Below, piece after piece: positions 92-55,737 of a DNA stretch of 64,000 nt. The notes under the pieces are model-generated. The model was not told the DNA's origin. It did not search any database and was given only the letters and a program-made list of their open reading frames with translations. Each line of letters starts with the position of its first letter. Positions within the stretch are counted from its first letter, which is position 1. The stretch lies in contig NC_134027.1 of assembly GCF_964204645.1 (NCBI RefSeq), positions 18,004,560 through 18,068,559 of the forward strand, in the 5' to 3' direction. The position numbers were made by a program, and so were the translations under genes. The stretch comes from Tubulanus polymorphus (Eukaryota; Animalia; Nemertea).

Positions 92-937
92 ATGGAAGGA
101 GGTAAAGTATATAAACATATTCCATACATCGATACAAATGAAAATAATGATGGTTTATATTATGTAATACCTTGTAATATTGCTTTGATATTTGATCCCA
201 TTTTCAAAATTTATAAAACTAAACTAATAGAAATCGATAATAATAAAAGTGAAGTTGTTGATAATTTAAATAATGTAATACCTTCTACATCTAATAATGT
301 AATACCTTCTACATCTAATAATGTAATACCTACTACATCTAATAATTTAATACCTACTACATCTAATAATGTAATACCTTCTACATCTAATAATGCAATA
401 CCTTCTACATCTATTAATGCAATACCTTCTACATCTAATAATGCAATACCTTCTACATCAAATAATGAAATAATATTAAATATTAGCGAAAATAGAAATT
501 ATTGTGATTATTGTAAAGGTGAATTTTCAAACGCTCCATCAAATTGGAATAAACATATGAATACAAAGGTACATATTACTAAGGTTATAGAACGTGTTGG
601 TTTAAGAGAATTTATAGAACACCCATTTATATATGTTACAAAATTTGTTTCAAATAAAAAAGTAAATGGTAAAGAATTATATGAAGATTTAATATTAGCA
701 ACGCCTAATAAAGATGAATTAGATTTAACCGATGCTAATAAAATATTAGGATCAAACACTGTAAATGAAATATTAGGAACAAACACTAATAAAGATGATA
801 ATGAAAATATCGTTACAGATAAGCATATTGATAATAAAGATTCTATGAAACATAAAGTAGAAAATAATGATAATTTTGATTGGATGAATAAGCATAACAA
901 TGAAACAACTATTGATGATGCGGTAAAAAAAGGGTGA
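92..937 (+). CDS. Maverick accessory protein with NNVIPSTS repeats and a zinc finger
   Basis: 8 copies of an 8-aa repeat; YCDYCK...HMNTKVH finger; homologs at 32882-33784 and 56658-57541. The 3' end looks frameshifted. Confidence 0.75.
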   Translation: MEGGKVYKHIPYIDTNENNDGLYYVIPCNIALIFDPIFKIYKTKLIEIDNNKSEVVDNLNNVIPSTSNNVIPSTSNNVIPTTSNNLIPTTSNNVIPSTSNNAIPSTSINAIPSTSNNAIPSTSNNEIILNISENRNYCDYCKGEFSNAPSNWNKHMNTKVHITKVIERVGLREFIEHPFIYVTKFVSNKKVNGKELYEDLILATPNKDELDLTDANKILGSNTVNEILGTNTNKDDNENIVTDKHIDNKDSMKHKVENNDNFDWMNKHNNETTIDDAVKKG

Positions 938-2054: not shown

Positions 2055-3085
2055 TTATTCTTTTAATTTTACTAGATAAAATCCATTCATTAAATTTATC
2101 ATCATATCCTTTATATTTCACCAAAGAATACTTTTTTCCTTTAAGAATTTTTGATTTCAATACTTTTTCTATTTTGTATTCTATTTCATCTGGATTTGGT
2201 ACAAGTGATAATTCTTTTTCATAGAAATAACCTAATATTTCTTCATCTTTTAGATCTTCTAATTTATAAACAAAAGGTTTAGTTAATATTATCTTTTTAA
2301 TCTTGAATATTTCTTCAGTAAAATTAGGGGTATAACCTTTATAAAAGGTTTTTCTATATTTAGATATTCTTACGTGTTGTCCAATTTTGAATCTAGGTTC
2401 ACCGAAATCATGTGTAACAAATGCTCCATATAAATTATTCCAAACTATTTCTGAATTATCTTCTTTTCTAGCTTGTATAGGTTTCATATTTATAGAACTA
2501 TGTTTAGAATTATTATAACCTTTCACTAAATCATCTAACACATCGATATATTAATATGTTTCATTAGCAGTAAAATATTTCCACATTCTAGTTTTCAATG
2601 TTTTATTAAATCTTTCTATAATAGATGCTTTTTTATCTGAGTGTGTTGAAAAATAATCTACATCGTTATCAGATAATAGTTTTTTAAAATGTTTGTTATA
2701 GAATTCCTTACTTCTTGTTACTTGTTACTTCTATACCAGTTTTATTTTTGATTGGAATTGACCATGCGTATCTACTGAATATGTCTATAACATTTAATAT
2801 CCAGAAATATCCTTTGTTGTATTCTTCTAAGTTCTTCATGTCAATTAAATCTGCTTGCCATTGTTGATCGATATATGAAACCATAACTTTTCTTGTTAAA
2901 TAAGTTTTATCCATTTTCATATGGATTTGATATGTTGGTTGATTTTGTAACCATGATTTCAATTCACTATATTTTATATTTTCATTATCAGATTTAATCT
3001 TATTCCATAATTCTGAAACGTTAGAATATGATACTTCACTTTCTGGGTTATAATATAAATCTCTTAAATATTGTTCTTTTTACAT
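2047..3085 (-). pseudogene. Retroviral-like DDE integrase with C-terminal chromodomain (disrupted)
   Basis: WQADLIDM, IDIFSRYAW and YNNSKHSSI motifs; chromo-like KIEKVLK...VKYKGYDDKFNEW; stops and a deletion relative to 30812-31882. Confidence 0.9.
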
Positions 3086-4048: not shown

Positions 4049-4689
4049 TTATATTAGAGAAAAAAGCGAAAAAAAATATAAGTATTATAAAATGATACCA
4101 GTATCTCTTTAGATTAATACTAGCTTAGTTAAAGGTAAAGAATTTTAGTATTAGTTATTGTTTTTTTAGTATTTTTTATTTGTGATATAAAGTATTCTCT
4201 TTTGAAAAGAATTGTAGAAGAAAATATCAAAAATTAAAATAGAAATAATGGCTAGTTGAAGTTATTGTTTTTTTAATATATTTTATTTGAATTCTATTTG
4301 ATATCTCACTACTTTTTTTATCTATTAGGAGCAGTAATTATAACTGTCCAGATAAGTCATTTCGGATCCTTGATATCAAATTCCTCAACGTATTGTTCAT
4401 TATTTGGATCATTGTTCCATTGATCAATAAATTTCTTTGCCTTTGTTAACTGTTCTAAATATAACTGTAAATCTAGTTTATTAGATTTTATTTTATTTTC
4501 TTTCTTTTCAAGAGGTATTAAATTTTTCCAATTCCAAATAAGTTTTTTTATTGTATTCATCATTCCTTTCCATTTATAAATTAAATTTTTATTAAAATTG
4601 ATTAACATTTTAAAATCCTCTTCCATTTCTTCGACTAACGTCATCCTTTTTCATTCCTCGCTGCTTTTGATAAGTCATTTCGGAGCCTC

Positions 4690-5080
4690 GATAATAAATC
4701 CTCAACTGAAAATCAATTCAACGAAACGACTGGTGGAAATATTATTTCATAAACACATATATTTATTATGTAAATTTTAGCGATCGATAATAGAACAATG
4801 GAGAACAATTATTGCGCAATACACAGTTATATTTTTATTCTGTAAACTACAACATTCAAACATAGAAATGTAACCAATCAATATTGAGCAGCTGTTTCCG
4901 TCAACAACGATCGATAATAGAACAATGGAGAACAATAGAAAAGCGGTCCAATCGGACCGGTTATTGCGCAATACACAGTTAACAGTAAACAATCAATACA
5001 GAACAACCGCCGCCATTAACAACGATCAATAATACAACAATGGAGAACAATAGAAAAGCGGTCCAATCGGACATCGTTTT
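4690..5080. repeat. Palindrome-rich repeat block
   Basis: Repeated GCGGTCCAATCGGAC, TATTGCGCAATA and AGAACAATGGAGAACAAT units; inverted homolog at 53020-53460. Confidence 0.7.
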
Positions 5081-5502: not shown

Positions 5503-6164
5503 CTAACCACTGATTAAAACCTCAGAATGCGGTTGATTCTGTGAAATACTATTCCATAATTCAACAAATGTCTTTGCTTTATCCAGTTGATCTAAATATA
5601 ATTTCATATCTAGTTTGTTAGATTTAATTATATTTTCTTTCTTTTCTAAAGGCCTTAAATTTCTCCAGTTCCAGATTAGTTTCTTATTATAATCATCACT
5701 CATGTCAAATTTAGAAATCGGCAACACGTGATCGATATGAAAATAATCTCCATAATTATCTATATTCATTTGACTATCGAATTGAAATATAATCCATGAT
5801 TTGAGAAATTCATCTGAACAACCCAACAAATTAGATAATGTTTCTGAATGCGTTTCTTTGTTGAATAATTGTGTTAATCTAGATCTTAAGCATTGTTTCA
5901 ATCTAAAATTAAGATCTGTTTTATATCTTTCTCTCATATATTCTGCCATATAATAATTATAATGTTCTAAATTATCTTCTCGATATTGTTTGGTATATAG
6001 TTTAGTACAAGTTTTACAGCAATATTGAAAACCATCTTTGCTAATCTTACGCTTACTAAATTCTGTTAAAGCTAATTTATCTAATTCACATTTCACTTGT
6101 AGTATATATTTATAACGCCGGTGTTATTTGTAATATTGATAGTTTGTGGTTGTTCTGATTCCAT
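5503..6164 (-). pseudogene. HNH-type endonuclease resembling large DNA virus HNH proteins (frameshift near 5' end)
   Basis: Cys-rich N-terminus, LLGCS, HIDHVLPIS...WRNLRPL...EN..KSNK; homolog at 28859-29537 and a 3' remnant at 4357-4560. Confidence 0.7.
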
Positions 6165-6603: not shown

Positions 6604-7082
6604 CAGGACTCGCGAGATTTTCAACAACACGGAAGTAACGTGTAATAAATGATGACTTGAATTGCATGACTACCTACCACCCCTCATAATTGTTGGGAAA
6701 CTAAACGTTCGGCACTGACTAAAAATTAGTAATAACATTTTTGAAATGGCCAATGGTATAATTTTTTTTTTTTTAACGGCCGTTAAGGCTTCATGTTTCG
6801 TCTGCAATTCACTGCAAATAGTTACGCAACTACGCAGATTTCAGTGTTTTTGGCAGCTGTACACTCAATCGGCACCGTTCGTGACTAGCTTCACTGCGGA
6901 ATTATCATTAATTAACATCGTCATATCACATCATCAACTTATATTGTGCCTTAAAACCCTAACAGCCGAAATAATTGAAATGCACACACGATTTCTATCA
7001 TTGAAAATTGAGAGAGTGGTCATGTTTGTGTTTGCTGCTTCGCATAAATCCCGCGCGGTGGCGCAACCGCGCGGAGTGGGGC

Positions 7083-7700
7083 CGATATGTCCAGACGATT
7101 ATCATTTGTTGATGTTTACTTATAACAATATGTATTACTATGACCGTTGCCTGCCGATGGGTTGCGCATCATCCTGTCAATTATTTGAAGTATTCAGTTC
7201 AACAATACAATGGATTCTATTGAATAAAAAAGACGTTCAGCTTATGTCCCACCTATTAGATGTGTATTTCTTTATCGGGAGGCCCATTTCTAGTCAGTGT
7301 AACTTAGCTATGCACTCATTTTTCGAAATTTGTACAGAAACCGGGATTCCCGTAAAACACGATAAGACTGTTCATCCCTGTACATGTTTAATAATATATG
7401 GTATTGAAATAGATTCAGACGCTATGGAAGCGCGTCTGCCATTAGATAAAGTGGAAAAAATTCTTGCTCAATTGTTGGACATTAAGTGCAAAAAGTCGGT
7501 GACGCTCAAGGAACTACAGTCACTGCTAGGCCTGCTCAATTTCGATTGCAGCGTAATCATACCCGGTAGGGCGTTTCTACGGCGCCTCTGCGATCTGACT
7601 TGTGGCATATCCCGGCCACACTACAGAATTAGGCTAAATAACGAAGCGAGATCTGATTTAACCGCGTGGTGGTCTATCGTAAACCATTTTAATGGAGGTC
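7083..7700 (+). pseudogene. DIRS/Ngaro-type reverse transcriptase fragment
   Basis: YYYDRCLPMGCASSC, decayed YLDD (HLLDVYFF), IYGIEIDS, LQSLLGLLNF, IPGRAFLRR. Most of RNase H is deleted; only the RQYAPW..LPTPIP tail remains, in another frame. Confidence 0.85.
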
Positions 7701-7902
7701 AGGCAGTATGCACCGTGGCTGAACAGACTGCCAACTCCTATACCACTGGCCAGCTACAGAATATAGTACAATTTCTGTTCACCAAGTCCGTCGCTCCTTC
7801 CACCTGGGCTGCATATCGTAGCGCGGTTGAGCATTTTCAGAAATTCTTGGTGAACGCCGGCCACCAGGAGCCCTCCTTTCCCACTTCTGAAGATACTATA
7901 TC

Positions 7903-8232
7903 AGTAATAGGAAAAGTAGGCTTTCATAACAGAGGTCGAGACACCACTCATCACAGCTAGGCCGAGAACGGTCAACAGCGTTGTGATACACAATACAGTG
8001 AGTGCGCGTAACAACAGCTGCGCGTGGATAGATCGATACATCGAGGTGCTACCGAGAACGGTTATTAACGTGTGTGCTATTACTGTAGTACAGTGATTGT
8101 GTGTCAGCTGTGCTCGGATAAATAGATGCTGTGAGGCTTGGGTTAGAACGGTAAATAGCGTGCTTGTTATATACAAGGGGAAGTAATCCCCACTCATCAC
8201 CACAAGTAATTTTTTCCCTTATAAATGGGAGA
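7903..8232 (+). repeat. Left TIR of element B
   Basis: Near-identical reverse complement of 22363-22700. Confidence 0.95.
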
Positions 8233-8550: not shown

Positions 8551-8702
8551 AATTTAAAAAAAAATAAATTAATAAAAATAATGAATATCTAGAATCCGAA
8601 ATGACTTATCTGGACAATTTAATTGCTCCACATAGATAGACAAAAGTAGTGAGATATTTAATTGATTAAAAATGAAATTATTTTTTGCTTTTTTCTAAAA
8701 TA

Positions 8703-13123: not shown

Positions 13124-14518
13124 TTAAAATTTAAAATATAATATTCCTCCTATAACAATTCCTATACAAGTTATAGCTAATTTAGCATTTTCATGGGATT
13201 TATTATCATCATTTCGTTTAATTATTTCATGTTGAATATCACCGTGTGGGCGCCGCACGGCACCATTTTCTGTAGTATTATAATCCGGTTTAGAATCATT
13301 ATTTAATTTAATATTCTTAGTTTTAGTTTCTGTTGATTGAATATGTTTTTTAATTTTTTCACCTTCCATTAATTTTGGAGCAGTAATAATCTTTTTTATT
13401 TATATCATTTAATCCAAATTAATTATTTATTGTTGCAGTTTTAATTAGATTATTATAACCAATTATATTTCCCATCTTTAATACTAAATCATTAGAAATA
13501 ATAAATAGATTAGGGCCTATACAATAATTGAATCTAATATGTGATTTATCTAAATTATTTTGATATCTTGCAATGTTTTCTGGAATCGATCTATTTTTAT
13601 CATTATGAATGGAATCTTCAAATAAAACTTTAAATTGTTTTTGTGTATCAAATGATGTATTTAAATTTCCAATTATTGGGGATCTTGTTTCAACTTGCGC
13701 ACCTAAAATACATATCAAATAAATTCTAATAGATTGACTTATTCTTTGTATACCAGCTTTAGTAAAACCTTCGCTATTTTCTAAAATGAAATAAACCCCA
13801 CCATTATTATTTTCTTGTTTTAAATTATCATAGAATTTCGGTAATTTATTGAAATTTAGTGTTTCTAAATCCTTTTTTCTATTTTACCATAACCTAATTT
13901 ATTATTATAGATATTATAAAAAGTATTAGATGGTATGGGAAGTGTACAATATGCTGCAACATTTTCGGGGCAAGGAAATGATCTTATTGTTCCAATTTTT
14001 GTTCTAAAATCAGAATTATTTATATCTATATTAAATTCATTACAAATTTTATAAAACTTTGATAAATTTATGTTATTATCTAATTCTTTAAAACATCTAG
14101 ATCCTGGTAAAGGCTCTAATTCATTTATTATTAATCTTATTTGAAAGTATGTATGAAATCTAAATAAACTTTGAATTAATTTATATTTAGAATTATTCAA
14201 ATGATCATTCCAACTAATTCCACACCCTGTTGTTGCGCAATAAACAGCAAAATTTAATTGGTTCTGCCAATATTTTATATTAGATTTTAATAACCATTGT
14301 TTTTCATCTTTCAATTTTTTAAAATTAATTAAATATACATGAAATATATTTTCCATCTTTGCATTAAAATTACTAGTTTCAGTAACATAAATATCTAAAT
14401 TAATTAATGAATTTAAAACTTCATTTCTATATGAAATATCTTTATTAAAATCTATTGCAGGAATATTATATTTAATTGATTTATTATATTGGAAAGCTTT
14501 TGGAAAACTATCTACCAT
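13124..14518 (-). pseudogene. Conserved Maverick protein (YWQNQLNFAVYCATTGCG family), fragmented
   Basis: Three collinear ORF pieces homologous to 36584-37874 and 59760-60641. Confidence 0.7.
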
Positions 14519-17483: not shown

Positions 17484-20400
17484 TTAATAACCATAAGGTA
17501 ATGTTTTTATACCATCATCTAAAATATGCCTTTTATCATCAAATGGATTCAAACTAGTTTTTTCAACTTCATTAATGTACATCTCGTGATTTTCTGATCT
17601 TAAACAATTCATTTTATGTTTCATTACAATTGAGTTATATAAACACTTTATATAATCTTGAAATTCTCTATGTTTATCAACCACATGTTTTGTTATTCCT
17701 TTTAACTTTTTTGCTTCATGATCTTTTGTTCCGTAACTATACATTTTACTTCTTATCCCAACAAATTCAATCATTTCATCACCCCCTAATTCATCTTTAA
17801 ATTTACCAGGAATCTTTTTATTATCATTGCTAAATAGTTCATGATCTTTGGGATAATTGCTAAAATCAAAATGATGTTTCAATGTTTTAAAGTCTTTTGT
17901 TATGTAATTTGTCTTGATTTTTAGTATGTACGCATCAGTATTGAAGCAACTTAATGGAAATCCACAGTTGAATGTGCCATCTTCAGTTGAGTTTGGTTTA
18001 GATTTAATCAATCCAATATTCATATTAAAACCTAATGAATTACATAATATATTCAATCCTGATATAGCAACTTTTCCGTTCTGTGCAAAGGTTATCTTTT
18101 TATCCTTTGTAAATTTTGTAGCACCATCTGCTGCGTAGAATCTAATGAAGAACCATTTTCTTAAATTATATTTTGCCTTTAATGCATAATCTGGAACTAT
18201 CTTTTCTTTAGTTGAAGTATTACTTTTCACTATTGCATGAATATAGAATTCATCATTATATTTAATTGCAAAATCTTTAGGGTTATTCACAAGTATTCTA
18301 TAAACTGCCGTTGATTTCATATGATCCACGATTCTAAATGTTTTATGTGAATAAACTTCTTCGCAGAATTTCTTAATTCTTTCTAATAATTTCAAGTCTT
18401 GATTGCATAAATACCAACAATATTTATTACACCAAACATGATTATACACACCTGCCGAACCATCTCCCATGAAAAATCCTTTGATAAAATATTCTTTTTC
18501 ATCTAATGTTTCGGGTTCTATATTATAAATATTATCAATTATTTCATCAAATGACATATGATTCATTCTTTTGAAAAATCTTTTATGTAATAATTCGTCT
18601 CCAATTTTCATATCAGTTGGTTTTATTTCATCACCATTTCGTTTAATTAAACTATGATCTTCTGTAACATCTACAAACCCTAATTTAGTTCTAACTCTAT
18701 AGATTTTCTTATTTGTTTTATGCCTAATAATATTCTTTAATTTTTCCATCCATTTCTTGTCCAAACATCCATTAAACCATTTATTTGTATTAATTCTTTT
18801 TCACCATAAGAAATATAACGTTCATTTTGCTTTGGAATTATTTCTGAAATTCTTCTAATTAATATTTGGTTATTGTATTTTAATAATATTGGGGTGTCTG
18901 CAGTAACAGAATCAAAATATAATATTTCAATATGCTTTTCCCCAAAAAGTGGTTGTAAAACATTATAATAAAAATCATACATTAATAATTTTGATAACTT
19001 CTAAAACAGTTGAACCAATGAATATAGGTTTATTAAATTTCATTGACGTTCTTTTTAATTTAACTGCTGTTAAATAATCTTCAAATCTTTTATTTCCTAA
19101 ATGTCTAGGGCTTGATTGTAAATGTATATTTTACTAATTCAATATCATTTCTATTTCTAATATTTTCACATGTTTTACCATAAAAACTATTATTCATTAA
19201 TTTAAAAGAATCTTTTTCGAAATCTGTTTTAGATATTGTTCTCCGTTGAGTATTAAAATCTATATATTTTTCTAACCACTTCGATTTATTAAATTCAATA
19301 TATCTATGTACTTTCTTTAATTTCATTCCTTGTTTTAGATAAAATTTTAACATTCTATAATGAACAATATAATTGTATTTATTATTTTGAGTAAGTATTA
19401 ATTTTTCTGTAAAAACGTGATCTTTCGGTTTTATTTTCTTCTGGTATTCACTTAAATAACTATCATCTACGGCTAAATGTTCTGGGCAATATGGCAAGTT
19501 TCTTGTTTTAAACTTTATATTTTCGGGATATTCTAAATCAACTACAAAGAAATAACCAATTGGTGCTTCATCTTTTAAACTCGTAATTGCGCTTTCCCAA
19601 TCAGTTTTATCATCATTTTCAACTTCTGTTAATATAAAATTTTTGTATGGTTGAGGTTGCATCATTGCCCAACCATATAAATTATTGGCGTCAATATATA
19701 ATAATTTATATTCATCATTTGCTTTAAAATATCTATCTCCCATAACACCACTAATTCCACCTCTAATTGATTTTTCAAATAATAAAACCATGTCTGGTTC
19801 TTTTAATAAATCTAATTCTACATTTGTATATTTTAAACCACATTGCCCGGTTAAACCAGGACTAGAGAAGCAATAATAAGGATCAACATTAAAATGATTC
19901 AAATTAATTTCTCTAAATTTTTCAAATATATCAGCCAATATCATAACATCTGATTTTAAATATAAATCAACTAATTCACCATGATTTTTCATCTTAAAAT
20001 GGTTCCAAATATTTAATGTAGTATTAAACACTTCATCTTTCACATCTTTTAATTGATCATAAAATTGATCTTTTAATTATTCTGTTACATTAAAATCATT
20101 GTGTGTTTTATAAAATGAATAAGGAATTGCACCTTTATATCTCAATAATTTAAAATCTTGTTCATTTGGATAATAATATCGAGTTATAACAAAATCATTA
20201 TCAACTAAACTTTTTGCTAAATTATCTAATGAACTATTTAAAAATCTATAAGAATCTAAAAATCTAATGCAACCAAATTGAAATGAAATATAATTTTCAG
20301 ATGTCTTAGCTAATAGTTTAAAATCATATTCTCTTACATTTACACCATTCATAGCATTATATTCTTCTATTTCTTGATTAATTGCGCCCAATTTTCCCAA

Positions 20401-24067: not shown

Positions 24068-24118
24068 CAATTCTACATTATAATTATTGAATTGAGTTAA
24101 ATGATTTAAATATCTGAT

Positions 24119-24722
24119 AGACTGTTAAAATGATAAATTGTTTGACAGTTGAAATGATAAATTGTTTGACAGTTGAAATGATGAATTGTTTGACAGTTGA
24201 AATGATAAATTGTTTGACAGTTGAAATGATAAATTGTTTGGCAGTTGAAATGATAAATTGTTTGACAGTTGAAATAATAAATTTTTTGACAGTTGAAATG
24301 ATAAATTGTTTGACAGTTGAAATGATAAATTGTTTGACAGTTGAAATGATAAATTGTTTGACAGTTGATATGATAAATTGTTTGACAGTTGAAATGTTAA
24401 ATTGTTTGACTGTTAAAATGTTAAATTGTTCGACTGTTAAAATAATAAATTGTTTGGCGGTTGAAATGATAAATTGTTTGACAGTTGAAATGTTAAATTG
24501 TTTGACTGTTAAAATGTTAAATTGTTCGACTGTTAAAATGTTAAATTGTTTGGCGGTTGAAATGATAAATTGTTTGACAGTTGAAATGTTAAATTGTTTG
24601 ACTGTTAAAATGTTAAATTGTTCGACTGTTGAAATGTTAAATTGTTAGACTGTTGAAATGTTAAATTGTTTGACTGTTGAAATATTAAATTGTTAGACTG
24701 TTGAAATGTTAAATTGTTTGGT
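24119..24722. repeat. 24-bp minisatellite, about 25 copies
   Basis: Unit ATGATAAATTGTTTGACAGTTGAA, drifting to ATGTTAAATTGTTCGACTGTT(A/G)AA. Confidence 0.95.
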
Positions 24723-25110
24723 TGTAAATTTAATTGTTATTTGATTTAATCATTTAAAAGTTTAATATTTTTAAAATGATTATAAAATATTTAATTAAAA
24801 ACTAGCAAATATTTTATAAACTGTTTAATTTCTTTCTTAAATAAATGGATGGTTTCATCCCAACTGGGAAAAGTGATTTGAAACATTATTTAGTAGCAGG
24901 AGGATTAATATTGGCTGCGCTTTTCTTTTATTATGAAAATATCAGTAAGGATTTGATTAATGAAATTATAAAATTGAGCAAGAAATGAAAGAAGTAAAAT
25001 GGACACAACCACAGAAAAAATAACAATAAAAAAGTTAATGATTTAAATGATTTGGAGGATTAAAACAGCATCTTTGAATGCAATTTATTCTATATATTTT
25101 GACTATAAAA

Positions 25111-25930: not shown

Positions 25931-27406
25931 TACAAGAATTTAGGATTTTTGATTCCATTATCAAAAGTATCAATTAGTTCAGTAATTAAATATGTTTCAT
26001 TTGATGATATTTGATTAATCACAGTAATGTTATCAATTTTATAATACCTTGCGGACACTAAATTTGTTGCTGAAATATAATTTTTAATGTTAAACTGTGA
26101 AAACGATTTATTGGTTTCATTGATTTCGATTTTAAAGTTAGGTTCTTCTTCTTTCTTCATTTTAATTACAAAACTTTTATTAAAACTCATTCAAAGATAA
26201 ATATTCAATGTTTTAAATATGAATTATTTCACTCGTTAATTACTCGTCACTTTTATACTGAAAATAAGAATTTAACACATTTAAATATAAATATTCACTG
26301 TTTTAAATATGAATTATTTCACTCACACTTTTTATGTTTAAAAATCTAACTCATACAAATATAAATATTGAAATATGTTTAAAATATATCTATCTATCTA
26401 TTCTATAAGAGCTCGTTAATTACTCGTTATTTTTATACTCTTTTAGTTATCCATTTATTTAACTTATATTTTTACTCGAAATCTGTTAAAATATGAATTA
26501 TTACTCACACTTTTGTAATTAACATATAAATGATTTTAAAATATATGAAATTCATGTAAATTATGTTCATTTCTAGTTGAACTCGGAGTGTGCGCGACTA
26601 ATTCAACTGGAAATTATTGTTATTTTCATTTTTTACAAGCTCGACCTCTGGACCTTTGGTATGAAACAACTAAACCCCTATTACTTACCTGACCCCACTG
26701 CATCTTTCTTTATAAGAAAACTCCTAAAAGGCGTCGCAAATTCCATCCCGAGCAGCCCTGACGCCCGTTTACCCATTACAATAGATATTTTGACTCGGTT
26801 GGTTGCCGCGATACCCGTCGTAATGGGCGAGGGCTTCGACGGTATCTTGCTCAAGTCTAGGTTCGTCTTGTGTTTTCATGCATTTTTGCGGGTCGGCGAG
26901 ATATCGGTTAAGTCTAGTGGCCATGCGACTAAGGTATTACATAAACATCAGGTCACCTTGTTCCATGGTCCTAATTCAACGCCGATGTTACGCGTCTGCA
27001 GCACGGACTACAAGCATAGCGATTTGATACCAAAACCATTGCTGTTGCCAAAGCATTCAAACCCATCCGTTTGTCTGGTCACAATTATATCTCATTACCT
27101 CCATGTGAGCAAGCATACGTCCGGTCCATTTTTTCAATTTCGAGATGGTGCAGCTGTATCGTATGTTTTTTTTGCAAAATCGCTAAAAAGTTGATATCAT
27201 TTCTCGGCCTGCCAGCTATACATCGCATAGATTTCGGATTGGCGCCGCAACCAATGCCGCAACGAACGGGGTCCCCGAGCCAGTCATTCGAGAGTTAGGA
27301 CGATGCAATTCAGACGCTTTCAAACGATACATTAGAATCAGTCCGGCCGGGACGGGACAGCACTAATGACGCATTGACGCAATTTTAAATGTTAAACTTT
27401 AATTTT

Positions 27407-27852: not shown

Positions 27853-28342
27853 GTATGTCTATGTTACAGACTCACCCCTCTCTTGAGATATGGAAACGAC
27901 CCCGGTTTGGCCTGGATGTTTGTTTCAAACATCTTGTGGCGATTTTTTGGCCAAACTTTTCGCAAAATATATACATGTATGTTTCAATTTGCAACAATTT
28001 TGTAATAAACTTAGTTTCACCAGTCATTTATACTAATAAATGACCTTTATCAATCAACTACATGTCTTGTTTATTTTGCTTCAAACAAAGCTCGTCGTTT
28101 TCCATTTCTCACGGAGCGGGGATATCATAAATGAGTTATATTTTTGTAGAGAATAAAATGTTTTGTGAGATCACGCGGAGTCACGTGTTACTTATCAGTT
28201 GTCAGTTACTCCTTGCCTCCGCCCCTCCTGACAACGTAGCGAAGCATTCCCTCGGAGAAACACGAAATACTTCGTTATTTTCACTGACTTCAATTCAATA
28301 TCCCACCCTTAATTCCCTCCCCTTTTCTTATGTGATAATTCG

Positions 28343-28741
28343 AATGCGCGGTTTTGCTCAGTGGTATGATTTAGATATTACATGTCGGTTGTTTCTATTT
28401 ACATAATGAGTATATAATTATGATTAACGCATGCGCATTGAGCAAAACCGCGCATGAATGCGCGGTTTGCCTAATGCAAACACGTTTAGATATTTCATGT
28501 CGGTTGTTTCTATTTTACAGAATTTACATAATGAATATATAATTATGATTAACGCATGCGCATTGAGCAAAACCGCGCATGAATGCGCGGTTTGCCTAAT
28601 GCGAACACGTTTAGATATTTCATGTCGGTTGTTTCTATTTTACAGAATTTACATAATGAATATATAATTATGATTAACGCATGCGCATTGAGCAAAACCG
28701 CGCATGAATGCGCGGTTTGCCCAGTGGTATTATTTAGATAT
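28343..28741. repeat. 125-bp tandem repeat (~3.2 copies) with internal palindrome
   Basis: GCAAAACCGCGCATGAATGCGCGGTTTGC recurs every 125 bp. Confidence 0.9.
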
Positions 28742-28858: not shown

Positions 28859-29537
28859 ATGGAACCAGAACAACCACAAACTATCAATATTACAAATAAC
28901 ACTGGTGTTATAAATATATATTACAAGAAGTGTTCTAAATGTGAATTAGATAAATTAGCGTTAACAGAATTTAGTAAGCGTAAGATTAGCGAAGATGGTT
29001 TTCAATATTGTTGTAAAACTTGTTTTAAACTATATACCAAACAATATCGAGAAGATAATAGAGAAGCTTATAATGATTATATGACAGAATATATGAGAGA
29101 AAGATATCAAACAGATCTTAATTTTAGATTGAAACAATGCTTAATGATCTAGATTAACACAATTATTCAACAAAGAAACGCATTCAGAAACACTATCTAA
29201 TTTATTGGGTTGTTCAGATGAATTTTTCAAATCATGGATAATATATCAATTCGATGATAAAATGAATATAGATAATTATGGGGATTATTACCATATTGAT
29301 CACGTGTTACCAATATCTAAATTTAACATGAATGATGAATACAATAAAAAACTTATTTGTGGTTGGAAAAATTTAAGGCCTTTAGAAAAGAAAGAAAGTC
29401 AAATCAAATCTAATAAACTAGATTTACAGTTATATTTAGAACAGTTAACAAAGGCAAAGAAATTTATTGATCAATGGAACAATGATCCAAATAATGAACA
29501 ATACGTTGAGGAATTTGATATCAAGGATCCGAAATGA
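28859..29537 (+). pseudogene. HNH-type endonuclease (frameshifted)
   Basis: CSKC, CCKTC, HIDHVLPISKF and WKNLRPL motifs. Confidence 0.7.
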
Positions 29538-29839
29538 CTTATCTGGACAGTTATAATTACTGCTCCTAATAGATAGACAATAGTAGTGATATATCAAATA
29601 GAATTCAAATAAAATATATTAAAAAAACCATAACTTCAACTATCTATTATTTCTATTTTAATTTTTAATATTTTCTTTTCCAAAAGAGAATACTTTATAT
29701 CACAAATAAAAAATACTAAAAAAACAATAACTAATACTAAAATTCTTTACCTTTAACTAAGCTAGTATTAATCTAAAGAGATACTGGTATCATTTTATAA
29801 TACTTATAATATTTTTCTTATTAAATTTCTCTAATATAA

Positions 29840-30811: not shown

Positions 30812-31882
30812 ATGAAAAAAGAACAATATTTAAGAGAGTCATATTATAACCCAGAGAGTGAAGTATCATATTCTAACGTTACAGAATTATGGGGTAAAAT
30901 TAATTCTGATAATGAAAATGGTAATATAAAATATAGTGAATTGAAATCATGGTTACAAAATCAACCAACATATCAAATCCACAAGAAAATGGATAAAACT
31001 TATTTAACAAGAAAAGTTATGGTTTCATATATCGATCAACAATGGCAAGTAGATTTAATTGACATGAAGAACTTAGAAGAATACAACAGAGGATATTTCT
31101 GGATATTGAATGTTATAGACATATTCAGTAGATACGCATGGTCAATTCCAATCAAAAATAAAACTGGTATAGAAGTGACAAATGCTTTTAAATCAATATT
31201 TAAAGAAGCTATTCCAGATAAGATACAATTTGATGAAGGTAAAGAATTTTATAATAAAAATTTAAAAAAACTATTATCTGATAACGATGTAGATTATTTT
31301 TCAACACACTCAGATAAGAAAGCATCTGTTATAGAAAGATTTAATAAAACATTGAAAACTGCTAATGAAACATATAAATATATCGATGTATTAGATTATT
31401 TAGTGAAAGGTTATAATAATTCTAAACATAGTTCTATAAATATGAAACCTATACAAGCTAGAAAAGAAGATAATTCAGAAATAGTTTGGAATAATTTATA
31501 TGGCGCATTTGTTACACATGATTTCGGAGAACCTAGATTCAAAATTGGACAACACGTTAGAATATCTAAATATAGAAAAACATTTTATAAAGGTTATACC
31601 CCTAATTTTACAGAAGAAATATTCAAGATTATAAAGATAATATTAACTTACCCATTTGTTTATAAACTAGAAGATCTAAAAGATGAAGAAATATTAGGTT
31701 ATTTCTATGAACAAGAATTATCACTTGTACCAAACCCAGATGAAATAGAATACAAAATAGAAAAAGTATTGAAATCAAAAATTCTTAAAGGAAAAAAGTA
31801 TTCTTTGGTGAAATATAAAGGATATGATGATAAATTTAATGAATGGATTTTATCTAGTAAAATTAAAAAAATAAATGAATAA
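30812..31882 (+). CDS. Retroviral-like DDE integrase with chromodomain
   Basis: WQVDL, QFDEGKEF and IERFN catalytic motifs; 7-aa in-frame deletion (RMWKYFT) relative to A and D. Confidence 0.92.
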   Translation: MKKEQYLRESYYNPESEVSYSNVTELWGKINSDNENGNIKYSELKSWLQNQPTYQIHKKMDKTYLTRKVMVSYIDQQWQVDLIDMKNLEEYNRGYFWILNVIDIFSRYAWSIPIKNKTGIEVTNAFKSIFKEAIPDKIQFDEGKEFYNKNLKKLLSDNDVDYFSTHSDKKASVIERFNKTLKTANETYKYIDVLDYLVKGYNNSKHSSINMKPIQARKEDNSEIVWNNLYGAFVTHDFGEPRFKIGQHVRISKYRKTFYKGYTPNFTEEIFKIIKIILTYPFVYKLEDLKDEEILGYFYEQELSLVPNPDEIEYKIEKVLKSKILKGKKYSLVKYKGYDDKFNEWILSSKIKKINE

Positions 31883-32881: not shown

Positions 32882-33784
32882 TTAATCACTTTCACTACCA
32901 GACCCTAACAATTTATTCAAATTCTCTACCGAATTTTCTTCTTCAAATTCTTTATTATTTTTATACTTTTTCATCCTTTTTACCGAATCATCAATAGTTG
33001 TTTCATTGTTATGCTTATTCATCCAATCAAATTTATCATTATTTTCTACTTTATGTTTCATTGAATCTTTAATATCAATATGCTTATCTGTAACTATATC
33101 ACCATGTGGGTGCCGTATGGCACCATCTTCATTATTATCTTTATTAGTGTTTGCTCCTAATATTTCATTTACAGTGTTTGGTTTTAATATTACATTAGCA
33201 TCGGTTAGATCTAATTCATCTTTATTAGGTGTTGCTAATAATAAATCTTCATATATTTTTTCACCATTTACTTTTTGATTTGAAACAAACTTTGTAACAT
33301 ATCTAAATGGGTGTTCTATAAATTCTTTTAAACCAACACGTTCTATAACATTATTTATATGTACCCTTGTATTCATATGTTTATTCCAATTTGATGTAGC
33401 GTTTGAAAATTCACTTTTACAATATCCACAATAATTTCTATTTTCACTAACATTTAATATTATTTCATTATTAGATGTAGTATGTATTACATTATTAGAT
33501 GCAGTAGGTATTACATTATTAGATGTAGTAGGTATTACATTATTAGATGTAGTAGGTATTACATTATTAGATGTAGAAGGTATTACATTATTATCAATTA
33601 CATTACTTAAATTATCAACAACACCACTTTTATTATTATAGATTTCTATTAGTTTAGTTTTATAAATTTTGAAAATAGGATCAAATATCAAAGCTATATT
33701 ACAAGGTATTACATAATATAAACCATCATTATTTTCATGTGTATCGATGTATGGAATATGTTTATATACTTTACCTCCTTCCAT
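32882..33784 (-). CDS. Accessory protein with NNVIPTTS repeats and zinc finger
   Basis: Homolog of 92-937; 5 repeat copies. Confidence 0.75.
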   Translation of the reverse strand: MEGGKVYKHIPYIDTHENNDGLYYVIPCNIALIFDPIFKIYKTKLIEIYNNKSGVVDNLSNVIDNNVIPSTSNNVIPTTSNNVIPTTSNNVIPTASNNVIHTTSNNEIILNVSENRNYCGYCKSEFSNATSNWNKHMNTRVHINNVIERVGLKEFIEHPFRYVTKFVSNQKVNGEKIYEDLLLATPNKDELDLTDANVILKPNTVNEILGANTNKDNNEDGAIRHPHGDIVTDKHIDIKDSMKHKVENNDKFDWMNKHNNETTIDDSVKRMKKYKNNKEFEEENSVENLNKLLGSGSESD

Positions 33785-36583: not shown

Positions 36584-37874
36584 TTAAAATTTAAAATATA
36601 ATATTCCTCCGATTACAATTGCTATACAAGTTATAGCTAATTTAGTATTTTCATGGGATTTATTATCATCATTTAGTTTAATTATGTCATGTTGAATATT
36701 ATCAGTTCTAATATTTTCTGATGTATTATAATCCGGTTTAGAATCATTATTTAATTTAATATTATTAGTTTTAGTTTCTGTTGATTGAATATGTTTTTTA
36801 TTTTTTTCACCTTCCATTAATTTTGGAGCAGTAATAATCATTTCATTTATATCATTTAATCCTAATGAATTATTTATTGTTGCAGTTTTAATTAGATTAT
36901 TATAACCAATTATGTTTCCCATCTTTGATACTAAATCATTAGAAATAATAAATAGATTAGGGCCTATACAATAATTTAATCTAATATGTGATTTATCTAA
37001 ATAATTTTGATATCTTACAATGTTTTCTGGAATCGATCTATTTTTATCATTATGAATGGAATCTTCAAATAATACTTTGAATTGTTTCTGCGCATCGAAT
37101 GAAGTGTTATCATTTCCAATTATTGGGGATCTTGTTTCAACTTGCGCACCTAAAATACATATCAAATAAGTTCTAATAGATTGATTTATTCTTTGTATAC
37201 CAGCTTTAGTAAAACCTTCACTATTTTCTAAAATGAAATTAACCCAACCATTATTGTTTTGTTTTTGTATATTATTATAATATTTTGGTAATTCATTCCA
37301 AATTATATCTGAATTTGTCATTGTTTTTCCAAATTCTTTAGTATATAATATTCCTAATCCACCCATTGTTCCAATTTTTGCTCTAAAATCTTTATTTGAA
37401 TTAATATTAAATTCATTACATATTTTATAAAACTTTATTCAATTCTTTAAAATATTTTGAACCTGGTAAAGGACATTCTAATTCATCTAATATTAATTTT
37501 ATTTGAAAATAAGTATGAAATCTAAAAAGTGATAACATCAATGGTAAACTTGGTTTGTTTAAATGATCATTCCAACTAATTCCACATCCTGTTGTTGCGC
37601 AATAAACAGCAAAATTTAATTGGTTCTGCCAATACTTCATATTAGATTTTAATAACCATTGTTTTGCCTCATTTAAATTTTTGAAATTAATTGTATACAC
37701 ATGAAATATATTTTCCATCTTTACATGAAAATTATTACTTTCAGTTACATAAATATATAAATCAATTAATGAATTTAAAACTTCATTTCTATATGTAATA
37801 TCTTTATTAAAATCTATTGCTGGAATATTATATTTAATTGATTTATTATATTGGAAAGCTTTTGGAAACCCCAT
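36584..37874 (-). pseudogene. Conserved Maverick protein (CATTGCG family) with C-terminal TM, split in two ORFs
   Basis: Collinear with 13124-14518. Confidence 0.7.
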
Positions 37875-45036: not shown

Positions 45037-46181
45037 CATGGCACCAGACAGTGCCTGGATGTATTGAGACATAGTGAATCACCCACCTCAGCCGCATTAC
45101 ATCATCCTCGATCGCACATATACAGGACGCATAGCATATTCTCTCTCGAAACACAATTAGGAGTTACAGTTTACAGTTCTAAATCTAAATGTAAGTACCG
45201 TTTTTAGCATTGGTTGACGTCTATGACGTCATGCCAATGCTAGTAAAATGGATCCAAAATAGTAGTACGAAAAAATAGCGCCGACTCTTCTCATTTTCAT
45301 AGTAACTTCAAATTGTCACTCCGTTCACGTAAAACATTAGAAACAGCTGAAAATGACTAAAAATGTTTCAATTATTCCCCACAACATAGCGTCGCCAGAT
45401 TTCTGATTTAATTGTCCAAAAAATTATTCGATCGCATTTTTCTCGTTCATTATCTGGTAGATGAGAGCTGGTTAAACAATCGCGTAGCGATATGTCCGCA
45501 TTTACATTGGCAGTAAAGAATGGGGAACAGCCTCTTCTGAATAGAAAAATATAAAATCATGTACCTCCGTTTATATATATCACAGTGTTTGGATATCACT
45601 GTTATTCCAACTATCAGTATCCATGGGATTTCGGATTCATTCTCAGCGTCAGAATACGTTTTTCTAGAGCAGTGGAACGGCAGCCTACTCGTGACTGAAA
45701 CCCGTATGTGATCGTGCGGGAACGCCTTTACTAAAGTTAAAACCATTTCATGATGACACGAAACATCAAACGGTAAACGGTAGGCTACCACCATGATACG
45801 ATATCCCCAATAAAGATAGATCATTTTATTCAATTTTACCAGAGTTGTTTATTGGAGGAAAATATCATTGTTAAGTACGCCGAGAACAACCATGTTGTAT
45901 CATCAATCAGTTGACTGACATTGTAAAATTCGATTCGGCTATATTCTAATATAAGTTTTCACTTTAGGACGCCCTACCCGCCTGCTCCGCACTAATAAGG
46001 CGGTAGCACCCTCTTACGCACTCGGCAGAGATTCGCTTTGTAATGCGCGCCGGGAAAAAATACCTTTTATTGTCTTTTCCATGCGTTAAATAACAGTGAT
46101 TGAATTTACGAGTTGTTTGTCGTAAATTGCAATATTGCGATGGTTATTTGCCGCTGCTGTAGTTTTTTGGAATTGAATCGA

Positions 46182-46406
46182 GCGGCCTCGGTAGCTCAGT
46201 GAGATAAGGCGTGATGCTGTTGAATCAACTATCAATGCTGAGTGACAAGTGGGTTCGAGTCCTGCTGGCTGCGTACAGTGTGCGGGCAACACTTCAAAGG
46301 CCCTACCGTCGTGAGGTTAAATGAACAATCCAATAGGAATCGTCTTGGGAAACCAAGATCCAAACGACGTGCGTAAAGCCAAACAGTCAAAAAGACAAAC
46401 AAACAA
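46182..46406 (+). mobile_element. tRNA-derived SINE
   Basis: A box TAGCTCAGTGAG, B box GGTTCGAGTCC, acceptor-like GCGGCC/GGCTGC pairing, ACAAACAAACAA tail. Confidence 0.65.
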
Positions 46407-52400: not shown

Positions 52401-54715
52401 TTAACAGTACAAATAGCCTAGGCTTAATCGTTCGGCAGAAAATAAATTCATTTTCAGGAATAAAATCGTACTAGACAAATAGACCTTTTAGTCTGTGGTC
52501 CTTCAAATCAACATCGTCATAGAAGATTTGCCGGCAGATGTAAAACATTATAACCACTTAATACCACAGTATAATCTACCAATGCTTCAAGGCCCATGGG
52601 CCTCTTGTTTGTAGTTATTACGAAATAGGGAAAGGGGGTTATTAAATATGAAACCTTTAAACATATTTAAATGCAGTAATTCATTTTCACAACAACGCTG
52701 TGAGTATAAGACATCCGAAAGGGGTTATTAGTATTAATCTATATTTAACAACAACGCTGTGAGTTTGGGAAGTGAAATACAAACCACTTCTCAAACTCAC
52801 AAGCAATGATTTGACTCATGCTAAATTTAAGCATAAACCTGGTTCAACTTCAAGTTAATTATGTTTTACGCTAGATATCTTTTAGATAACAAAATGAAGA
52901 CCATTTGAATCAAGAAAGTGAAGATGGATGTGGAACCAGAAATTATGGATATTTCATCTCAAGAGACCGAAGCTGTTTCATCATGCTTTATTATATATGC
53001 CGGAATTGCAGTTGCGCGTACATTCGTCGTTCGGCTGTTGTTAATGGTGACAGCTGTTCTGTATTGATTGGTTACTGTTAACTGGTATTAAGCAATAACC
53101 GGTCTTATCGGACCGCTTCTATACATTAGTCGTTCGGTCGTTGTTGATGGAAACGACTGTTCTGTATTGATTGGTTACAGTTCTGTGTTTGAATGTTGTT
53201 GTTTACAGAATAAAAATATAACTGTGTATTGCGCAATATGCGGTCCTATCGGACTGCTTTTCTATTGTTTGAATGTTGTTGTTTACAGGATAAAAATATA
53301 ACTGTGATTACGCAATAACCGGTCCTATAGGACCGCTTTTCTATTGTTCTCAATTATTCTATCTTCGATCGCTACAATTTGCATAATAAATATACGTGTT
53401 TACGAAATAGAAATACACTCAGCGTTTTCGTTAAATTTATTTTCAGTTTGAGGATTTATTATCGAGGATCCGAAATTACTTATCTGGACAGTTATAGTTA
53501 CCGCTCCTATAGATAGACCAAAGTAGTGAGATAATCTAAACCCTAATTTAAATAAAAATATCAAAAATTACATAACTTCAACTAGCTATTGAATTCTTTT
53601 ATATTTTTATTCAAAATCTAATATTTCTTTTCAAAAGGAGAATACTTTATATCACAAATACAAAATATTAAAAAACAATAACTTCAAATAGCTATTCAAA
53701 TCTAGTTAATACTAGAATTCTTTAACTTAACTAAGCTAGTATTAACTAAAGAGTTACTTGTATCATTTTATAATATTTTTTTTCGCTTTTTTCTCTAATA
53801 TAAATGTCAAAGAAATTTGATATTGAAAAGACAATTGAAGATTTAGGTATTACAGATAATAAAGATACAGTTGTTTGTAATTGTGCTCAAGTTGATAATA
53901 ATATTGATTACGAGAACTACATATTGTAAGCACCATCTTGAACTATTGATTGCTGGCGGCAAATATAAAGAATTCTTAAATAGAATTAGATAACAGGAAA
54001 CCAGAAAAAGTAATCAAACATTTCAAAATATATGAAGAAGCTAGATTAGCTAGAATAAATGATTCTATCAGTGATGGAATAGTAAAATGTTATTCTAAAT
54101 TATGTAACCGAATGATACCAATTGATGATGAAAATAAACTATACACTGATTTAAAAAAAGACTGCTTAGTTATGACAGAATTACAAAAATGGGTTGGATA
54201 TGCTTCATTCCAATTAGGCGGAATAATGACATTAATTTCTACTGGCGTAATAACATTTTCTTATATCAAACCTATAGTATGTAAAGATAAAAGTAAATCA
54301 GAAGATATTGAATCAGAACAAAAATTAAGTAAAATAAATGAGTGATGATATTAAGAAGAAGCCTAGATCTGAAAAACAAGTACATTGGGCAAAGGAGTTG
54401 GGAAAAAGATCTGCAGAATAGAAAATAGCTAAGAAAAAGAAATTAACTGATACAAATGAACCACAGAAATTATCTGATATTAATTCGAATGATAATCCAT
54501 CTGATTCTTCTAATACTGGAAGAGATAATTACTTATATATTACAATTAGGTTAATCGCAGTAATTGTGTTCTCTGGTGTAATATATAAATCTAAGTATAA
54601 ATCTGATGATAACGGAAATGGTAATGATGATTATAAACCTATTATACCAGAAACTAAATCAAATGATAAAATCATTGAAAATAAACCAAGATTATTATTG
54701 ATGGATTAAAATAAG

Positions 54716-55737
54716 ATGAAAAAAGAACAATATTTAAGAGATTTATATTATAACCCAGAGAGTGAAGTATCATATTCTAGCGTTACAGAATCATGGGATA
54801 AAATTAAATCTGATAATGAAAATATAAAATATAGTGAACTAAGATTATGGTTACAAAATCAACCCACATATCAAATCCATAAGAAAATAAAAAATCATTT
54901 AACAAAGAAAAGTTATGGTTTCATATATTGATCAACAATGGCAAGCAGATTTAATTGACATGTAGAACTTAGAAGAACACAACAAAGGATATTTCTGGAT
55001 ATTAAATGTTATAGATATATTCAGTAGATACGCATGGCCAATTCCAATCAAAAATAAAACTGGTATAGAAGTTACTAATGCTTTTAAAACAATATTTAAA
55101 GAAGCTATTCCAGGTAAGATACAATTTGATTGTATTTGTATTTTTCAGATAAAAAAGCATCTATCATAGAAAAATTTAATAAAACATTGAAAACTAGAAT
55201 GTGGAATTATTTTACTGCTAATGAAACATATAAATATATCGATGTATTAGATGATTTAGTGAAAGGTTATAATAATTCGAAACATTCAAGTATTGGTATG
55301 AAACCTATACAAGCTAGAAAAGAAGATAATTCAGAAATAGTTTGGAACAATTTATATGGTGCGTTTGTTACACATGGTTTTGGAGAACCTAAATTTAAAA
55401 TTGGACAACATGTTAGAATTTCTAAATATAGAAAAACATTTTATAAAGGTTATACTCCAAATTTTACTGAAGAAATATTTAAAGTTAAAAAGATAATACT
55501 AGCTTAACCTTTTGTTTATAAATTAGAAGATTTAAAAGATGAAGAAATATTAGGTTATTTTTATGAACAAGAATTATCACTTGTACCAAATCCAGATGAA
55601 ATAGAATACAAGATAGAAAAAGTATTAAAAACAAAAACTCTTAGAGAAAAAAGTATTCTTTGGTGAAATATAAAGGGTATGATCATAGATTTAATGAATG
55701 GATTTTATCTAGTAAAATTAAAAGAATAAATGAATAA
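54716..55737 (+). pseudogene. DDE integrase (multiple disruptions)
   Basis: Collinear with 30812-31882. Confidence 0.85.

Follow-up and report, generated by a model that had tools for sequence, protein, structure and literature searches.

A dispersed, probably mobile 27-bp GC-rich hairpin unit in the decayed Polintons of the nemertean Tubulanus polymorphus

The stretch of Tubulanus polymorphus DNA analysed here, 64,000 bases long and hereafter called the window, contains four decayed and mutually similar elements of the Polinton/Maverick type, which we term A to D. The elements are fragmented, and their genes include an integrase with a chromodomain, an A32-type ATPase and a type-B DNA polymerase (PolB), with profile matches to rve (E 5e-9), Pox_A32 (E 3e-10) and DNA_pol_B_2 (E 8e-5, below the cutoff). 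There is also a candidate capsid-like gene; its Atlas feature hits reach 0.96-0.98, and some of the clusters carry capsid families on 10-18% of their members, a signal of low recognition value. No protease match was found among the window ORFs scanned. Integrase, PolB, packaging ATPase and capsid make up the Polinton/Maverick gene set (PMC9683012).

Several other features accompany these genes. About 970 bp of the PolB of B (window about 17942-18910, minus strand), split over two ORFs, are absent from that of C and match an intein profile (E 3e-4) and LAGLIDADG (E 1e-4) weakly; judged from sequence, this segment is likely an intein in the Polinton polymerase. Three ORFs are HNH-like (29262-29537, 4357-4644 and 5503-5949; best Pfam match HNH_4, E 0.008, below the cutoff). 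A reverse-transcriptase-like ORF with a weak RVT_thumb match (6746-7960) and an ORF that looks recombinase-like by eye (26661-27194) suggest fragments of DIRS-type retroelements. Tandem arrays lie at 24095-24740 and 28342-28741. The former has a short period and contains an open frame, and the latter repeats a unit of ~125 bp with a hairpin of 11-bp stem. A tRNA-like A and B box sequence, possibly the head of a SINE, was noted by eye at about 46170-46310. The retroelement fragments nearby, the few integrase relatives that carry a name and the CpG decay described below would fit an animal host. The copies of the 27-bp unit that is our subject, the genes that hold them and the corresponding empty sites are collected in Table 1.

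Table 1. Window positions of the 27-bp unit, its host genes and its empty or altered sites
Feature	Position	Strand	Remarks
Full copy 1	13238..13264	-	Element B; near-palindrome (16 bp), tail (9 bp), then AT
Full copy 2	33098..33124	-	Element C; clean addition of 27 bp when compared with A
Host ORF of copy 1	13124..13369	-	81 aa; 3' part of an unnamed Polinton gene
Host ORF of copy 2	32882..33784	-	300 aa; repeat and zinc-finger-like; zf-BED E 0.005, below cutoff
Integrase-chromodomain gene, element C	30812..31882	+	Contains the likely remnant site
Six extra bases	30920..30925	+	Within the integrase of C; missing from those of A and D
Empty target GAAAAT^AT	803..810	+	A's homolog of the zinc-finger-like gene
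Empty target GAAAAT^AT	36711..36718	-	C's homolog of B's gene
Empty target	2976..2983	-	A's integrase; position from a hand count along the alignment
Empty target	about 54818-54825	+	D's integrase; counted by hand
Conserved non-coding stretch	8645..8660	+	Empty in window elements
Homologs of the non-coding stretch	near 29582 (+), 4313 (-), 53522 (+)		Empty

A preliminary description of the window had reported a GC-rich 27-mer on the minus strand of two unrelated genes, and both copies were confirmed at those positions, identical to each other at 23/27 bases in direct comparison. A scan of both strands of the 64,000 bases, allowing up to 10 mismatches, returned these two full copies only, plus the self-match of the palindrome; the chance expectation of such a match is 1e-9 to 1e-5 on backgrounds of 24-50% GC. 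The gene that holds copy 1 encodes a hydrophobic C-terminus and has a longer homolog in element C (36584-37366), with which an Atlas search gave no usable match, and database searches found no relatives of the zinc-finger-like ORF that holds copy 2.

The copies had further been described as hairpins in very AT-rich DNA. Both are near-palindromes of 20/27 and 16/27 GC (59-74%) between flanks of 22-24% GC, but the fold itself holds for one copy: that of C, with one mismatched pair in the 16-bp palindrome, is more stable than its shuffles (z -2.35 and -2.69), whereas that of B, with two, is no better than its own (z 0.14 and -1.28). The minimum-energy fold of the C copy has a weak second stem of 3 bp, absent from the centroid, and none appears for B. 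The ends of the unit form a short direct repeat, GGTG...GGTG, not inverted repeats, and the palindrome spans one end only. A comparison with Rfam gave no match. Towards the ends of A and D, a repeated non-coding region holds a different GC-rich hairpin (4944-4959 and 53320-53335), which recurs in several degenerate copies and is possibly a terminal signal; its sequence differs from that of the unit, which rules it out as a source.

The homologs of both genes were said to lack the insert. For C's zinc-finger-like gene this is borne out: compared with the homolog in A the gain is a clean 27 bp, and the homolog in D is also without the insert. B's copy, by contrast, occupies the place of 15 other bases in the C homolog, and the closest protein relatives (P0001-P0005) are in the C state, not the B state, in 5/5 cases. 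A second AAT^AT site lies 15 bp downstream of the empty target in that C homolog, at 36696-36703.

A third gene carries a smaller trace. Where the integrase of C has six more bases, those of A and D show GAAAAT^ATA; the six bases match the first three plus the last three bases of the insert at 5/6 positions (chance 0.003-0.005). The motif alone would be expected 0.61 times in 45.5 kb, and its weight comes from its position only. We infer that the six bases are likely the remnant of a lost copy, removed by slippage between the terminal repeats. The site falls in a predicted loop between helices 23-32 and 41-50 of the integrase; elsewhere in the same protein, near residue 182, C is ~7 residues shorter than nearly all of 120 homologs.

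The fourth site, assigned by eye, is non-coding. The insert is absent from this conserved stretch in 4/4 window elements, no ATG-started frame spans it, and the sequence of A, B and D at this point is GAGAT^AT. The target there and at its three homologs is preceded by an AGTAGT word, which is typical of Polinton termini; it is not a host junction here, since the DNA on both sides is common to the elements. Two of the three HNH-like ORFs end just before this site.

Four public sequencing runs under one species label, representing at most three samples and two studies, were aligned to the two filled sites; one of them (X1) may be the source of the window. It should be noted that reads from other sites align only if they resemble the reference, which biases the consensus of the target in favour of the two reference sites, and that flank classes were compared with the window by eye. 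The run available as raw reads (X4, about 12% covered) gave 746 aligned reads at C's site, with a depth of ~213 over the insert against 66 to its left and 147-159 to its right. Among the classes listed, loose ends fall at 33095 (34 reads), 33096 (80 reads, a mixed class with agreement of 0.61), 33128 (69 reads), 33130 (20 reads) and 33135 (20 reads). By eye, the classes at 33095 and 33135 resemble the two sides of the integrase site and that at 33128 resembles the conserved non-coding stretch, while that at 33130 found no placement in the window. At B's insert the depth dips to 89 against 129 and 299 beside it; among the classes listed there, the 68 reads that depart at 13238-13239 and the 24 that depart at 13265 look by eye like the empty homolog, and another 24, departing at 13270, look by eye like the start flank of the integrase.

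Reads and contigs together thus place the unit in at least four flank contexts, by eye the two window genes, the integrase and the non-coding stretch. One contig of run X3 (record 22) runs along B across the entire insert and continues with what looks like the 15 bp missing from B, which is a clean insertion, and three reads from two starts carry a double-copy allele with two copies 15 bases apart; B's allele may be a double-copy allele collapsed to one copy. In a single contig of run X2, a sequence resembling C's integrase with its six extra bases also contains the full insert, and this would be a re-insertion at the remnant site. The flanks placed so far are all Polinton DNA, and ~15.7 kb of host DNA in the window is without a copy. 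On the window alone, with two full copies that both follow GAA-RAT, one might think of a single ectopic gene conversion between the two genes, with a GC-rich patch that had arisen by chance in one of them as its donor, the outcome that the preliminary description had set against its own proposal. This fails because several flank classes meet at the insert edges, in material from two studies, and there is a likely remnant at a third window site; we regard it as the least probable of the explanations weighed here. We are instead highly confident that the unit is a dispersed mobile unit.

Empty sites in the three genes share GAAAAT^AT, a filled site is a net gain of 27 bp with AT on both sides, and the insert edges are identical at all sites observed. 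The junction allows three readings: a 25-bp insert with a duplication of AT, a 27-bp insert placed between A and T, or microhomology between target and element. Where the insert falls in a gene it adds nine amino acids, 27 being a multiple of three, and the coding copies in the three genes lie on the same (sense) strand and in the same phase. As the preliminary description had it, both window copies keep the frame after GAA-RAT.

Its stronger statement, that the unit inserts specifically in-frame, was not upheld. One of the largest read classes resembles a non-coding stretch, 5/6 readings of the insert are stop-free, and the check for frame and strand bias found no excess over the available GAARATAT targets, 17/22 of which, in 31 ORFs, are already in the insert's phase (p 0.46). 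The shared frame therefore needs no selection, since the phase follows from the GAARAT^AT target. Selection on the frame, under which the insert would be kept for its nine-residue peptide, is unproven and seems to us very improbable: the occurrence in three genes, sense and in one phase, does stand out against a looser RATAT target (109/473 sites in phase, p about 0.012), but the excess vanishes with the longer target, a major site is non-coding, 3/4 of the differences between the copies change a residue, and a 30-residue query found no match among 1.84 billion protein representatives.

The copies also appear to age. They differ at four positions, three of which are CpG sites in the copy of B (13243, 13251 and 13258). 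Reads aligned on B differ from it at 13251 in 78/92 cases and at 13256 in 82/96, and because most reads differ there, these two states are private to B. After rows from poorly aligned reads were dropped, the remaining variants in the insert at B comprised CpG transitions in 49 reads against 10 clean others. Small deletions are likewise seen among the copies in reads. We infer that the CpG decay fits methylation after integration.

The read differences at 13251 and 13256 point towards a perfect 16-bp palindrome, as for a site bound by a dimer, and one of the largest read classes maps to the conserved non-coding stretch. Both would suit a functional cis-signal of the Polinton, either a protein-binding palindrome or a replication signal, that has its home at the non-coding site and was copied elsewhere by accident. 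However, none of the four window elements has the unit in that stretch, and the 27-mer, sought at up to 9 mismatches, is absent from 29/29 metagenome loci with related integrases, which are short and mostly without the non-coding stretch. Copies that lose CpG sites and suffer small deletions also speak against a maintained signal, and we consider this explanation improbable.

The search was carried further afield. An exact 25-base pattern had 0 matches in viral_contigs, metagenome_contigs and genome_contigs (185,579 prokaryote genomes), and an exact 21-base pattern had 0 in viral_contigs; these collection searches are exact or of low power, and animal genomes lie outside their coverage. No integrase relative was confirmed in viral_contigs. 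One 5-residue match to the readings of the insert among 142 fetched proteins was taken as chance. Among the 22 related loci with GC under 36%, none holds a GC-rich stem that is perfect over at least 6 bp.

One related locus (L003, integrase 62% identical) nevertheless has a different in-frame insert, of 30 bp, within its integrase (region 908-950). It is bounded by AAC and folds as two hairpins (z -2.5 and -3.8), the first with a GTGCC/GGCAC stem, the same as in the unit; its 5-bp stems were detected only by a scan for GC islands that covered 12/29 loci. An exact search for this insert had 0 matches in viral_contigs. We regard it as having arisen independently of the 27-bp unit. Insertions of at least 5 residues occur in 13/45 of the closest integrases, and 8/16 insertions in these homologs lie at the predicted inter-helix loop. 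Glycine, alanine, arginine and proline make up 26% of the inserted residues against 14% of the backbone (p 2e-4), a comparison in which the residues are not independent and loops favour such residues anyway; the DNA behind the insertions was examined for L003 only.

The preliminary description had proposed a miniature mobile palindromic element resembling Rickettsia palindromic elements (RPEs) or mitochondrial GC clusters. Its dispersal to non-homologous sites stands, while the in-frame specificity attached to it does not. By analogy, the unit would work like the GC clusters of yeast mitochondria and, more loosely, like double-hairpin elements and RPEs, being a member of none of these groups. 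Like the yeast clusters, among them GC42 and the in-frame clusters of var1, it is short, gene-less, GC-rich and palindromic in AT-rich DNA, and it occurs as filled, empty and footprint alleles at coding and non-coding sites (PMC8811140, PMC4478555). The clusters are bounded by a direct repeat of 2-3 bases; the AT on both sides of the unit may be such a repeat, or else microhomology or an insertion between A and T. The unit differs in residing in nuclear endogenous DNA viruses among nuclear-type repeats, not in fungal mitochondria, and, compared by description, from GC42 in its length (27 bp against 42) and its repeat (AT against AG or TAG; PMC8811140, PMC4478555). The way in which GC clusters and comparable hairpin mini-repeats move is described as still unresolved (PMC4478555).

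The double-hairpin elements of Allomyces mitochondrial DNA and the repetitive hairpin elements of sponge mitochondrial DNA are likewise hairpin mini-repeats thought to be mobile (PMC2800124), and the L003 insert is a clear double hairpin of this kind, with C's copy offering a weak second stem. The unit departs from the Allomyces elements in that its second stem has 3 bp and its setting is not organellar. Those elements are described as being without flanking duplications (PMC2800124), whereas the unit has an apparent AT repeat of ambiguous register. Resemblance to RPEs lies in the use of coding and non-coding sites (here three genes and one non-coding site, the reads judged by eye) and in being read through in frame (PMC1166351). 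RPEs, however, are bacterial, and the exact prokaryote search described above was empty. They are also several times longer than 27 bp.

Polintons with nested inserts of this sort did not turn up in a literature search, the scope of which left out most subscription journals. We favour the reading that the unit, a 27-bp hairpin without genes, spreads through DNA-level copying into AT-rich sites of the GAARAT^AT type, guided by a few bases common to the target and the unit's own flanks, and to this reading we assign a probability of about 0.5. The setting would be strand-displacement replication of, or recombination between, co-resident Polintons. A hairpin would stall or break the strand, and the nascent strand would leave its template for a donor copy at the RAT word, returning at the next AT. 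Where this switching was imprecise, it could give B's allele (27 bp for 15), the double-copy alleles and, through slippage between the terminal repeats, the 6-bp remnant; after integration the copies would likely age by CpG decay. What would let copies persist in genes is a length divisible by three, together with five open readings out of six and sites that lie in loops or linkers. Against strand switching, the shared words are short (5-6 bases on the left, 2-3 on the right), and identical edges at every site would equally suit a cut defined by an enzyme.

Such an enzyme, acting in trans, would make the unit a true non-autonomous transposon. Two candidates come to mind: a Helitron-type HUH protein inserting between A and T, or a Polinton nuclease, HNH-like or an intein endonuclease, opening GAARAT^AT and leaving repair to copy the insert. 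Besides the constant edges, a junction readable as A/T insertion without duplication agrees with the first, as does geometry: on the minus strand the 16-bp palindrome ends 10 bases from the terminus in AT-rich DNA, close to the 19-bp palindrome and 11 bases of the Helraiser 3' terminus (PMC4778049). For the second there are the HNH-like ORF whose end lies ~50 bases ahead of the non-coding site in C (match to HNH_4 at E 0.008, below the cutoff) and the weak LAGLIDADG/intein match in B's PolB. The Helitron likeness goes no further than this. Read between A and T, the unit has TG...GTGA on the minus strand and TC...ACCA on the plus strand, so that 5'-TC and CTRR-3' do not stand on one strand (PMC4778049); it is far too short for both Helitron ends and, at 27 bp, falls below the terminal 40 bp tested for Helraiser cleavage (PMC4778049). 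No HUH gene appeared among the 29 + 12 proteins scanned, and the unit has been seen only in Polinton flanks, which weighs slightly against a Helitron of the host, as does the copy-free host DNA of the window. As for DDE enzymes, the unit lacks the terminal inverted repeats of MITEs and other elements mobilised by them; with no inverted ends, MITE-like behaviour driven by the integrase is unlikely. On balance, mobilisation by an enzyme in trans seems to us possible, at clearly less than even odds.

The unit shows empty, filled, double and likely remnant alleles at several sites within a multi-copy element of less than 20 kb that has few candidate enzymes. It would extend elements of this kind from mitochondria and bacteria to the endogenous DNA viruses of animals, and it would suggest where the short insertions of related integrases (13/45) come from. 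A bolder proposal, which we hold as rather doubtful, is that hairpin hyperparasites of 25-30 bp form a class proper to Polintoviruses, with a GTGCC/GGCAC stem across hosts, and are moved to a defined GAAAAT^AT target by a Polinton-encoded enzyme; with their cycle of insertion, remnant and re-insertion they would be a standing source of new loop peptides in the proteins of the virus. The unit would be, in an image, a miniature parasite of a genome parasite.
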